From Mytilus edulis (Eukaryota): DNA of 64,000 bases. A program made the position numbers and the translations under genes. Positions 25,438-63,233 of this stretch are shown here, in pieces (within the stretch, counting starts at the first letter, position 1; every line of letters begins with the position of its first letter). The notes below the pieces were generated by a model. The model made no database searches. It saw only the letters and a program-made list of their open reading frames with translations, and was not told where the DNA came from. Where the stretch lies: the NCBI RefSeq assembly GCF_963676685.1, contig NC_092353.1:23870001-23934000 (forward strand). Direction: 5' to 3'.

Positions 25438-28400
25438 ATGAAACTATTAAACAACGTTATATGTAAGTAAATCAATATGTTATTACTTTTATAAAGTGTA
25501 AACGCAGCTTTGAATAATTCAATTTTTTCGATGGAATATAGCAAATCAGAATTGTGACCCTAGTGTTCCAGTAATTATGTTGATTGATATAAAGTCAACT
25601 GTTATGTAAAATATGATTATATCATTTGAAATATAACTATGACATGTGAAATAAGACTAAAATGTCATGTAAAATAATGCCCAAGTAATAAGAAATATGG
25701 ATTTTTCATGTGCTATTGATTAATATTATAAGGCGTTTTGTTTTGTTAGCTTTTTATCTGGTATTAATACATACAGTGATATAAAACTTATATTTTTATC
25801 TTTTTATTTAAAAAAAAAATAATATGTTTTGTTATTTTTCCCCGAGTTAATCATGCGTGTTCTATATTAAACTAACTATAAATTCTTTTTTTTTAAATGA
25901 TACAAAAAAGAGAATTAATGATTCTTCGCCATGAATTATTTAGAATTTAAAATAAATAATTCTTTGTACTTAAATTTGTCAGATTCGAATAAAAGAATGT
26001 ATCAACGATTTTTCTTGTCTTATTGGAAACAAAAATTAAAGTAACTGTATGTAGTTGAATGACACACTTCTTTATATAAATAGTTTCTCTTCTTTGTTTT
26101 ACAACATACATGCACATTGTAGTAATAATCATTTAATGTAGCCAATAAGGTACCTGATAACTCAAGTACTCTTTTAATTTTTTTAACAGGTCTCTGCTTT
26201 TGTTTCATTTGTATCTTTGGACAACAATGTGACGATCTCGATTCTGATGTATGTAAGCGGTTGCATGGCCAGAATCCGAGTCTGTGTGCAGATAGTTGTT
26301 TGTCCAGTATCTGCACTAGATTCTGTGGTCAATGTCGTAAGTTATTTAGGTTATCTTCGTGTACCTCTAATATTACAGTTTTGCGTAAGATACATTGTAT
26401 TTTTTAATAATAAAGGGATTTGGCAGTCATAAGGAAAACAAACAATACATTGAAAGACGAACTAAACAAATAAATCAAGGACACATAACTATGGTTAAAA
26501 GCTCGCATAAATGTCAATTTTATACAATTATGAAATGCAATTTTCAACACAATATTGGCATATGTATACAGGACTTTGTGTATGCATTAAATTGTGCTAA
26601 CTATTATATTATCAGCTCTGACTTGTTATTCCTGTCATGAAGTAGACGATCCTTCTAATTGTACCACCACTGCAGTCTGTCCATCTAAAGATCATGTACG
26701 TACACAACTTTTATTTGAATAAGTAATTAGCCTATGCACGAGGGTTGATGCATCTTTCAGAACCATCTTTTTCCCCAAAACAACCTACACGTTTTAAGTT
26801 ATTAAATTGGCATTTAAAATTATTAAGTTTCTGAAAAAAAGTAAAATAAGAGGAGCGGAGTATAGATATAACGTTTACAAAACATCAGCTGAATAATAGC
26901 ACGCAAGTTTACTGAACATTTAGCTGAAGACTTGTATAAGAATTATGTTACATGTGATACACACTTTAAAGGATTTTGTGTATGTTTTTCCACAAAATAA
27001 AAATCTAAAAGCTAAAACAAATATCAAGCATTTATCACCACCATAAAACATGTTACCAAGCAAATTAAATGTATCATAGATTCCTACTATAATCATTTTT
27101 AGAAGGTTTGTGATATTATGTATGAATATGACACATTCAATTAAAATACAGGTTGGGTAAAACAAACCCAGCCCTTATAACCCTTTTCATTTACTGACAT
27201 ATAAAATCGAAAAGATAAAAAATAATAATAATAATTCTCCAGGCCGTGTACAATGTGTGCTGTTGTACAGTGTTTCATGTTAGTTACATTCGTGTTTTTT
27301 AAAACACGAAATTACTCCATTTATACAGAACATTGCAGATACGGTGGTAAAGTCATGTAAAAAATAAAATTTAATTGAAATATTTTAGTATTGCTTCACA
27401 ACTCAAACCTATACAGATGACTTCCAAGAGGTTTACAAGTTAGGATGTGCAAAGAAATCAGTAAGTAGTGATGTTTATTTATTTACTAGATTTAGAAAAA
27501 TACACAGGGGTAACAAAAGAGACTTATGTATCTTCATTATCGGTTTAAAACTCGCCAAAAAGGAACATGTTTAATTGTTAAAACCATATTTTAGATCACA
27601 AACATTTCAACAGCAGGATATTTAAAAAAAAGTATGAACACTTGTACCAATCTGATTCGTTTAATTTGGGACATAGCATTTTGTTTTATTATCTAAATGA
27701 CGATGCATTTAAATGTTGCCTGTCTGGTCATTCCTGCGTAGTTACTTAGTACCCTGAAAAGTGTACTATGAAAATAGAAGGCAAATTGAAGCAATTTGAT
27801 TGGACGAGAAATTGTAAGTATGTGTTAATGTCATTTAAATTATGGTTGCCTTTCAAAATGTTCATTGGTAACTGTTTGGTTAACCCTGTATATTCTATAC
27901 TTGATTGTTTAAATAATATCTAAATCAGCTGAATTGATCTTTATAAATGCTCTGTATTGATAATATAAAAAACGAAAAATCATACAATTGTGCAGTTAAT
28001 TTCTAGGATGCTTTTAAAATGAAAGCTATTCAGGTTCGGGAATCAATTTTACATTAATATCTAACAAAAGTTTGAATAGCTCTAGAAAAAATCAAGCTCA
28101 GAAGTCGAACAAACCTTGTAACACCTGCATGATTTAGGGCAAAAGGTTATACTATAAAGTATTGACTATCTATAAGTGTATATACGCATATGTTTATTAT
28201 TTTTGGATGCTATGATATCAGACTAGGTTATCTCTATCTTGTTTTAAAATTGTACAATACAGCTATGTGAACAGAATATCAACTCTGGGAAGAGGTCCCA
28301 CCTCGATGTAAATGGAGGCTGTTGTAGTTTTGATCAATGTAATAACATACTTCCAGCATTAATTGATGAGCTAACAGTAACTAGTACTACAGAAATGGTC

Positions 28401-62300: not shown

Positions 62301-63233
62301 TTGAATTCCGTTTCTAATATTTCTGCTATTTTTTCATATATATATTTGAATAAGCTTTCTTTATTCGGAGCTTTTAGTCTAGCAAAAAATACACCAAAAA
62401 GTATATAGAATAAATATAAATGTTGCAGAAAAGGTTAAACCAACGTATGGTATATTTAATTACATATTCTGATTTGGTTTAAACTGTATGTCTGCGGGTA
62501 TTTGTATATGTAAACAACTGCAAAATATTGTTGGGTTGTCCAGCTTGCGGAATACAGTATTAATCTTCTAAGGACAACATTCAGTAAAATGAAATGATAA
62601 GCAAACATATACAATTCTAAAAGTAATGATTTATAACCGTATGTAAGGCGTCTTATTTCGAATATATGATAAAATCAACGGTACTAATTTTGTTGCACCA
62701 GATGCGCATTTCGACAAAACATGTCTCTTCAGTGATGCTCGTGGCCAAAATATTTGAAATCCAAAGCTTATATAAAAGATGAAGAGCTATAATCCAAAAG
62801 GTCCAAAAAATATAGTCAAATTCGTGAAAGGAATCAGAGCTTTGCATGAGGGAGATACATTCCTTAATTTATAATAATTTCTAATATTTTGTAACAGCAA
62901 ATTTTAATAACACAAAAAAAATCCGTATGTTCATGCCAGTGCCGAAGTACTGGCTACTGGGCTGGTGATACCCTCGGGGAACAGTGTCTTCTAAGATTGC
63001 ATTTTAAAAATGAAACTAATTCATAATAAAAAGAAAAAACTCAGAGTGGAGAACTCGAAAATCAAGTTTAATCCCACAACATCCCCATGTGCATCTTCCT
63101 AGTCAGAAATTGATCTTTGTTGTGATGTAGTTATGGTGCATTTTACCTTAATTTTACAGATCAGTGTTATAGCTGCAGTGATATAGATCGTCTACAAGAT
63201 TGCAGTAATACCACAACATGTGAATCAGGGAAG
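53381..63233 (+). CDS. Gene 3 of the cluster (5' part; continues off the right edge): SP-ShKT-LU-[extra ShKT]-linker-ShKT-LU...
   Basis: Exons 53381-53405 (MNVLIIPF), 53986-54132, 54577-54656, 56727-56798, 57194-57344 (alternative in-phase donor 57350), 58767-58895 (extra 6-Cys ShKT), 61126-61170 (45-nt linker GPSTKSRVILATTIT), 62128-62262 (ShKT2; AAG acceptor), 63160-63233 (YQCYSCSDIDRLQDCSNTTTCESGK). Frame is open throughout and shared exon sizes match gene 1. Confidence 0.85.
55490..55533 (+). ncRNA. Minimal type I hammerhead ribozyme, sense in intron 3 of gene 3
   Basis: GCGUCA-CUGAUGA-GUC(uuaugua)GAC-GAA-ACGCGCGU-C-UGUCGU, with one U-U mismatch in stem I. It lies within R2 fragment ~55425-55567. 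Confidence 0.8.
55770..56660 (+). mobile_element. 5'-truncated, inactivated Penelope-like retroelement (RT and 3' tail)
   Basis: YFVKNNTESRKIYTEEDITARLDFLIDNIFVDFGGFVFQQTIVIPMGTNCAPLLGD*...FRYIDGVLSLNN...YDKRDDFYFPIFNFLFLCSNIPAAPAYGVYVSQLIRYSRA. Catalytic YIDD is mutated to YIDG and there are in-frame stops. Tail ACACGACGGGTGCC...TGCTTACCCTTCCGGAGCACCTG. Confidence 0.9.
59414..60307. mobile_element. pogo/Tigger-like (Tc1-mariner superfamily) non-autonomous element
   Basis: Imperfect ~22-bp TIRs CAGTAAAACCTGTATAAACCGG / CCGGTTTAATCAGGTTTGACTG, TA on both flanks, and repeated subterminal CCGGTTT motifs. Confidence 0.85.
60444..60752 (-). mobile_element. ~310-nt retrozyme-like monomer (R5) with an intact hammerhead at 60469-60512
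   Basis: Minus strand: GCAUCA-CUGAAGA-GAC(auguauu)GUC-GAA-AUGCGCAU-C-UGGUGC, all stems paired. Confidence 0.9.
62670..62981 (-). mobile_element. Second near-identical R5 retrozyme-like monomer with an intact hammerhead at 62695-62738
   Basis: Direct repeat of 60444-60752 at 2226 bp spacing, with the same ribozyme core and palindrome AUGCGCAU. Confidence 0.9.

Follow-up and report, generated by a model that had tools for sequence, protein, structure and literature searches.

We analyzed a 64,000-nucleotide stretch of the Mytilus edulis genome (contig NC_092353.1, positions 23,870,001 to 23,934,000; G000:C10:23870001-23934000 in the 1.37 Gb genome), hereafter the window, which is AT-rich (GC about 31%) and carries three paralogous multi-exon genes on its plus strand. 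As the original prediction had proposed from the sequence, gene 1 (25438-33989, 12 exons) and gene 2 (39165-51708, 12 exons) encode proteins of exactly 470 and 457 amino acids (aa); gene 3 begins at 53381, continues past the window end, and encodes 505 aa. Modeled by coordinates, the genes show canonical splice sites and matching phases throughout, with one GC-AG donor at the end of the first C-type lectin domain (CTLD) exon of gene 3 (L001:2131, L001 being the region downstream of the window). All three proteins follow the same order: signal peptide, ShK-like module, Ly6/uPAR (LU) domain, second ShK-like module, second LU domain, Thr/Pro stalk, and CTLD. The prediction had placed a CTLD only on genes 1 and 2; gene 3 also ends in one, and its CTLD exons are located past the window end, in L001.

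In gene 1, exon 1 (25438-25462) starts the signal peptide in agreement with the N-terminus of database protein P0196, and exon 2 (26190-26336) completes it and encodes ShK-like module a, which has seven cysteines (seventh Cys codon, 26297-26299). LU1 (26616-28413) is assembled from exons 26616-26695, 27389-27460, and 28263-28413, with a Gly-Lys-Arg motif at 28287-28295. ShK-like module b (28875-29009) again has seven cysteines (seventh codon, 28967-28969). LU2 and the stalk (30013-31406) come from exons 30013-30086, 30694-30765, and 31241-31406, with an F-G-R-R motif whose G-R-R lies at 31283-31291. The CTLD (32255-33989; exons 32255-32358, 32887-32998, and 33715-33989) contains eight cysteines and matches P0196 without gaps. 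Similarly, gene 2 consists of exon 1 (39165-39189, signal peptide start, in agreement with the P0212 N-terminus), exon 2 (41991-42137, signal peptide and ShK-like module a, seventh codon 42098-42100), LU1 (42375-43966; exons 42375-42454, 43261-43332, and 43819-43966; G-R-R at 43843-43851), ShK-like module b (44432-44563, seventh codon 44521-44523), LU2 and stalk (46439-48846; exons 46439-46512, 48300-48371, and 48648-48846; F-G-R-R, with G-R-R at 48690-48698), and the CTLD (49953-51708; exons 49953-50074, 50856-50949, and 51500-51708).

For gene 3, exons 1 and 2 (53381-53405 and 53986-54132, together 53381-54132) encode the signal peptide and ShK-like module a, and the model is identical to residues 1-216 of P0139. 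LU1 (54577-57344; exons 54577-54656, 56727-56798, and 57194-57344; G-R-R at 57218-57226) has nine cysteines. Two exons are additional to the common plan: a canonical-type, six-cysteine ShK exon (58767-58895), found in P0004 and P0141 and scoring 20.7 bits against the Pfam ShK cut-off of 20.9, and a 45-nt linker exon (61126-61170), found in P0141. ShK-like module b (62128-62262, seven cysteines) and the first LU2 exon (63160-63233) follow, and the remainder lies in L001 (201-272 and 782-947, then the CTLD at 2013-2131, 3056-3149, and 3665-3873). The full 505-aa model is 97.8% identical to P0141 over 505 aa. The exon 8 acceptor (window 61170-62128) is A-rich and looks weak, and the M. edulis RefSeq models split the gene there (P0139, P0144); its counterparts in the M. 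galloprovincialis and M. trossulus models are unsplit.

Spliced RNA contigs from three of four runs, representing three studies, join gene 2 at 48371 to 48648, 48846 to 49953 (LU2 to CTLD), 50074 to 50856, and 50949 to 51500, all with GT..AG, so that the junctions of exons 8-12 are exactly the modeled sites. A loose contig end in one run agrees with exon 7. One contig extends 750 nt 5' of exon 9, the modeled distance from the ATG, which is consistent with the 5' joins and is no proof of them. Gene 1 is matched by an assembled contig of 1,711 nt that codes for P0196 (470 aa), with 98.1% identity to the model and no gaps; because gene 1 spans 8.5 kb, this contig is spliced. The expectation that transcripts join the ShK-like and LU exons to the CTLD is thus borne out. 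Full-length matches exist among named Mytilus proteins for gene 2 (P0212, 457 aa) and gene 3 (P0141), and for gene 1 and the 5' half of gene 2 the junctions are supported by database proteins rather than reads. In the remaining run (raw reads X24, of which about 18% were read), no exon was covered, which may reflect restricted expression or divergence. By hydropathy, the only hydrophobic stretch in the three proteins is N-terminal, and they are likely secreted. In two Mytilus species, the RefSeq annotation merges gene 1 with gene 2 across 33989-41963, giving proteins of 928-945 aa (P0213, P0215). We rejected these models as probable annotation chimeras, read-through being possible, because separate proteins of 470 aa (P0196, P0217) and 457 aa (P0212, P0214) exist and gene 2 owns its first exon.

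To assign folds, we combined Pfam profiles with AlphaFold2 models of the gene 2 orthologue (mean predicted local distance difference test score (pLDDT) 79, predicted template-modeling score (pTM) 0.50) and of a two-module paralogue lacking a CTLD (pLDDT 84, pTM 0.67). On the predicted structures, the three-finger, ShK, and CTLD folds that the original prediction had named are all supported. Both LU domains adopt a three-finger fold closest to GPIHBP1 (Z 8.4), CD59 (Z 8.0), PSCA, and Lynx1, with venom toxins lower; uPAR was also matched by Foldseek. They carry 10 cysteines and end in CC-x4-CN, as had been described; gene 3 LU1 departs from this with nine. Pfam UPAR_LY6 scored 33.6 bits for P0212 and 39.3 for P0196 against a cut-off of 24.8, and for P0141 it fell below at 21.2, where Toxin_TOLIP scored 27.7 against 21.2. 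In gene 3 LU1 (first exon, 54577-54656), the second cysteine is lost and the third kept, as in the M. trossulus orthologue; with 47 cysteines in total, one thiol of this protein is likely free.

The ShK-like modules were proposed to be duplicated ShKT domains, and this stands for the fold and for the C-x3-C-x2-C ending. The modules have seven cysteines instead of six, however, and are too divergent for Pfam ShK. All 27 repeated modules retain six invariant cysteines and the ending, and 25 of the 27 have the seventh cysteine between Cys3 and Cys4; none reached the Pfam ShK (PF01549) gathering score, with weak matches in 4 of the 27 (best E 0.4). Three ShK-fold structures align with the second module in the predicted model (residues 161-199; Z 3.0-3.2, root-mean-square deviation (rmsd) 2.3-2.8, 35-37 residues), a low Z for a small domain, and hhalign gave P 0.0016 versus 0.42 for the control. 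No ShK structure appeared among the listed Foldseek matches of the predicted model, whereas the VIA comparison did list some. A search of PDB sequences with the module profile returned only 7L2G (E 0.13) and an unrelated peptide, and one with the extra ShK exon of gene 3 returned nothing useful.

The CTLDs match, among top structures, CLEC9A, NKR-P1B, LLT1, and LOX-1. Pfam Lectin_C is above its cut-off on P0212 (34.4 bits) and is not listed for P0196 or P0141. The calcium-site motifs EPN, QPD, and WND are absent from the CTLDs of genes 1-3, and an EPN/QPD-type motif occurs in 1 of 19 family CTLDs, so the CTLD head is likely Ca2+-independent. By hydropathy, no glycosylphosphatidylinositol (GPI) signal or transmembrane helix was found (best internal 19-residue window, 0.71-1.06; last 25 residues, -0.29 to 0.30), and genes 1 and 2 indeed end in a CTLD with no such tail.

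These details bear on the function first proposed, in which the lectin head delivers channel- or receptor-modulating folds. A Lys-[Tyr/Phe] pair between Cys3 and Cys4 occurs in none of the six window modules and in 2 of 27 family-wide. We take the corresponding Lys-Tyr dyad of ShK to lie in the same Cys3-Cys4 stretch as the extra cysteine here. This dyad is Lys22-Tyr23 in ShK, and according to the available text of PMC6409789, which cites MMP23, it is not strictly needed, a point in favor of a toxin function. Net charge ranges from -4 to 0 in the modules of genes 1 and 2, and the LU domains are no closer to venom toxins than to non-toxic Ly6 proteins. Together with the missing EPN/QPD/WND motifs and the presence of the ShK-LU cassette on VWA, C1q, or ShK tails or on no tail (below), these observations speak against lectin-guided toxin delivery; the proteins are probably not toxin-delivery devices.

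The three genes proved real, and the family is far larger than the three-gene cluster first described. In the window and seven fetched genome regions, we mapped at least 15 copies, 13 on C10 and 2 on C11; 12 have all 11 exon types, 1 lacks the CTLD, and 2 are incomplete as found. Searches with two divergent paralogues added about nine candidate loci on C10, C6, and C13, and a word-index homologue search with one exon as the query returned a single genomic open reading frame. Searching 1.84 billion proteins with a profile yielded 136 hits. Two-module proteins occur in Mytilus, Magallana/Crassostrea, Ostrea, Saccostrea, Mizuhopecten, and Argopecten; the 30 clusters inspected bear automatic names only (uncharacterized, hypothetical, domain-containing, mucin-2-like). 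Their tail is a CTLD in at least 11 of 23, a lower bound as the tail pattern missed the CTLD of P0040, and a further ShK in 2; several are tailless. In clams, one ShK-LU cassette is joined to a VWA, C1q, or ShK tail; single-module tails comprise VWA (Mactra and other records), C1q (Mactra), ShK (Mya, Dreissena), and CTLD (Mytilus P0078). Since the tail is exchangeable on the cassette, the unit of evolution is the ShK-LU cassette.

Several relatives show further arrangements. M. trossulus P0199 has one six-cysteine ShK, four near-identical LU repeats each with F-G-R-R, and a CTLD. Single LU exons with splice sites occur in tandem partial copies in paralogues (L025, about 5850-6530; L010, about 5500-5770; G000:C11:7757292-7757589) and are possible alternative exons. 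A near-copy of the C11 76.89 Mb paralogue (L029-L030, G000:C11, about 76.55 Mb) has missing or broken exons and is likely a pseudogene.

The three genes thus belong to a large and apparently undescribed bivalve family. No description of its architecture, cassette, or motif was found among the open full-text papers searched, in line with the original statement that no named family known to it fuses all three folds. A preprint on a 'two-finger toxin' (10.1101/2025.07.03.662903) was considered as a prior description and rejected: that protein is Argos-like with a different fold, and bivalves and ShK are absent from the part of its text available. In the accessible parts of two papers, the digestive gland of a different mussel shows enrichment of ShK-like, C-type lectin, and C1q domains, with ShK attributed to metalloproteases (PMC5549309), and the same domain classes are listed (PMC4203926); neither names this family there. 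Multi-domain secreted lectins are a known kind of protein in molluscs, and the predicted two-chain, amidated three-finger domain could be the newer part.

Two features that the original prediction had missed, the seventh cysteine and a Gly-dibasic site, suggest a different mechanism. Counts for both refer to library hits of at least 200 aa (56 of 136); fragments were dropped from the tail and loop-spacer analyses and the tree. Every module of all 24 multi-module proteins has the seventh cysteine. Among the one-module hits, 21 of 26 lack it and the remaining five are fragments of two-module proteins; it is missing from all 20 complete one-module proteins. A paralogue at about 62.6 Mb on C10 has lost it from both modules and nests among seven-cysteine proteins (supports 100/96 and 100/95). 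The mature proteins of genes 1 and 2 have 42 cysteines each, all of which can be bonded if the two odd cysteines pair. The simplest reading of this joint gain and loss, drawn from sequence comparison, would be a ShK-ShK disulfide between modules 1 and 2, and the predicted fold of the two-module paralogue is compatible with packed modules.

The second feature lies in LU loop III. A G-[KR]-[KR] motif occurs in 46 of 80 loops, compared with a mean of 4.6 and a maximum of 11 in 1000 shuffles (LU2, 19 of 23; LU1, 8 of 23; single-module proteins, 15 of 20). All six LU domains of genes 1-3 carry it, preceded by Phe in LU2, and the preceding residue in 14 genomic copies is F in 11, L in 2, and I in 1. 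Loop III is unconstrained in length (4 to 46 aa), and in the predicted structure the site falls within a disordered-looking segment (residues 257-270, pLDDT below 50). Among the 20 single-module proteins, 11 have a spacer and then another Arg ahead of a D-[VIL]-[STN] motif; in 2 more, and likewise in gene 1 LU2 with a motif of that type, the Gly-dibasic site leads directly to it. In prohormone processing, a Gly-dibasic sequence is a convertase site with an amidation Gly. Loop III is therefore predicted to hold a conserved, exposed convertase/amidation-type signal, and cleavage there would keep both parts joined through the LU Cys7-Cys8 bond. We know of no convertase-cut, amidated two-chain form among Ly6/uPAR proteins.

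The head and the cassette also differ in their rates of change. Conservation among Mytilus paralogues is lowest in the CTLD (28% identity versus 42-46% for the cassette domains). Relative to the M. trossulus orthologues, gene 2 differs at 16 of 124 CTLD and 2 of 229 cassette positions, and gene 1 at 18 of 147 CTLD positions and 11 of 227 elsewhere. Read variants of gene 2 (40 of 69 listed) include seven changed and three silent codons in the last CTLD exon compared with none and three in the last LU exon.

Collectively, we favor, at a probability of roughly 55%, the reading that these proteins are processed, disulfide-clamped, two-ended recognition adaptors, secreted with a variable CTLD head and a conserved cassette. 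The fast-changing head, likely Ca2+-independent, would bind variable surfaces of foreign or food particles, while the conserved ShK-like/three-finger cassette would bind a constant host partner. The two odd cysteines may bond together and pack modules 1 and 2 into one head. A proprotein convertase could cut the disordered loop III, and a carboxypeptidase and PAM would then leave a Phe-, Ile-, or Leu-amide at the cut. The mature protein would be multi-chain, its stalk and CTLD hanging from the head via the LU Cys7-Cys8 bond and one strand. It would serve in recognition, within mucus, gut, or haemolymph, and would not act by blocking channels.

Several observations weigh against this reading. 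The CTLD of gene 3 is no more variable than the rest of the protein (6 of 124 versus 14 of 227 positions, compared with P0004), and for gene 2 the second contig could derive from a paralogue and the variant list is partial (40 of 69). Several family members have no tail at all; therefore, a head is not always needed. The Gly-dibasic signal is found in only 8 of 23 LU1 loops and is absent from 4 of 23 LU2 loops. Moreover, the seventh-cysteine pattern amounts to only two independent events (one single-module clade and one double loss) and fits inter-chain bonds equally well, and gene 3, with its 47 cysteines, leaves one free.

That inter-chain possibility underlies an unlikely alternative, in which the proteins are cross-linkers of mucus or matrix, with odd cysteines joining neighbors head-to-tail and His-rich CTLD or VWA tails binding mucin, metal, or mineral. 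The joint gain and loss of the seventh cysteine fits an inter-chain bond between modules a and b. Additionally, His makes up 3-12% of the last 135 residues in 19 members, VWA tails and Thr-rich stalks occur, and the names mucin-2-like and perlucin-like are attached to a member and a fragment, respectively. However, rapid CTLD divergence and the many paralogues suit recognition better, the double-loss paralogue remains intact, and a simple polymer needs no conserved processing-type signal.

The adaptor could also operate with an uncut Gly-dibasic loop whose basic tip is itself the epitope that meets a receptor or polyanion. Three-finger proteins are known to bind partners through basic loop tips, and the conserved hydrophobic residue before the motif would suit such a role. 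In contrast, the length and flanks of the loop vary freely and the segment is predicted to be disordered, while the second basic site with its conserved downstream start in 11 of 20 single-module proteins resembles propeptide excision, which makes this variant doubtful. Equally speculative is a further proposal, in which the cassette would be a two-chain three-finger protein with prohormone-like maturation: loop III would be excised, the N-chain would end as a tethered Phe-amide, the head (CTLD, VWA, or C1q) would anchor on a particle or microbe, and the cassette would offer a ligand resembling a neuropeptide to receptors or peptide-gated channels of the host. If so, a filter feeder could couple recognition to responses of its cilia, secretory cells, or muscles. 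Finally, it is quite improbable that a lectin head targets ShK and three-finger folds that poison the ion channels or receptors of predators, parasites, or eukaryotic microbes. In favor of this are the support for both folds, the likely secretion of the protein, and the expansion of the family. Against it, the six window modules lack a Lys-Tyr/Phe dyad and place an extra cysteine in that stretch, the best LU matches are non-toxins, and it is the cassette that is conserved, although effectors of toxins tend to diversify.

Other features lie in the window and its flanks. On the minus strand, 772-14273 holds a gene of many exons, presumably matrilin/collagen-VI-like, that includes four VWA exons and no fewer than two EGF-like ones; its VWA exons 772-1332 and 13590-14150 look like close copies. 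A decayed retrotransposon reverse-transcriptase-like fragment without a Pfam match, which we take to be Penelope-like, lies in gene 3 intron 3 (about 55850-56400, plus strand). Short repeats in gene 2 introns (49550-49700 and 50710-50815) have very deep coverage in all four runs and similar copies across the window. Tandem repeats occur at 6666-7018 (period 163), 7249-7360 (period 4, GACA), and 36039-36521 (period 241). Downstream, L001-L003 contain a 589-codon plus-strand open frame, a minus-strand exon that is presumably UFM1-specific protease-like, and YWTD/EGF exons that we likewise assume to be LDL-receptor-like.

The analysis delineates a bivalve family that is expanded and apparently undescribed, together with a mobile ShK-LU cassette common to mussels, oysters, scallops, and clams, and it offers candidate molecules for the sorting of microbes and food by filter feeders. 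Should the predicted processing hold, a three-finger domain would be matured by convertase cleavage and amidation to a two-chain form. Compared with Ly6/uPAR proteins (GPIHBP1, CD59, PSCA, Lynx1, uPAR), the mussel LU domains share the 10-cysteine pattern ending in CC-x4-CN, UPAR_LY6 scores above cut-off for the gene 1 and 2 orthologues, and the fold (GPIHBP1, rmsd 3.0 over 76 aligned residues; CD59, rmsd 3.1 over 71). They differ in having no GPI or transmembrane tail, a preceding ShK-like domain each, the Gly-dibasic site in loop III, and a C-terminal CTLD. Snake three-finger toxins are stand-alone domains of about 60-75 aa, whereas the LU domains here are embedded in spliced proteins of 457-505 aa. 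With ShKT proteins, the modules share the six-cysteine frame ending in C-x3-C-x2-C and align with Acan1 (Z 3.2, rmsd 2.8, 37 of 40 residues), MMP23 (Z 3.1, rmsd 2.4, 35 of 37), and Nak1 (Z 3.0, rmsd 2.3, 36 of 39); unlike them, they have a longer Cys2-Cys3 helix, the seventh cysteine, no Lys-Tyr dyad, and scores below the Pfam cut-off. Unlike the mollusc CAP-ShK and astacin-ShK proteins described in the available part of PMC6409789, their partners are LU and CTLD, not CAP or M12.

The CTLD resembles those without a canonical calcium site (CLEC9A, NKR-P1, LLT1, LOX-1, Dectin-1), with a TM-score of 0.88-0.90 to CLEC9A by target length; however, it is soluble, C-terminal on a stalk, and has eight cysteines, rather than being part of a type II membrane receptor. 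Mollusc FREPs, CREPs, and C1qDC proteins are secreted and expanded, with a variable C-terminal recognition head, and FREPs and CREPs have one or more N-terminal Ig domains. The mussel proteins share the variable C-terminal head, and C1q also tails the ShK-LU cassette (P0098). In contrast, their N-terminal part folds as ShK-LU rather than Ig or coiled coil, no Ig domain being matched in Pfam scans, and a processing-type site lies inside a folded domain. With insulin-type and amidated neuropeptide precursors, that site shares the Gly-Lys/Arg-Arg signal and, in relatives, the short spacer between two basic sites in a disulfide-closed loop, although the fold is unrelated and the cleavage is here predicted only.

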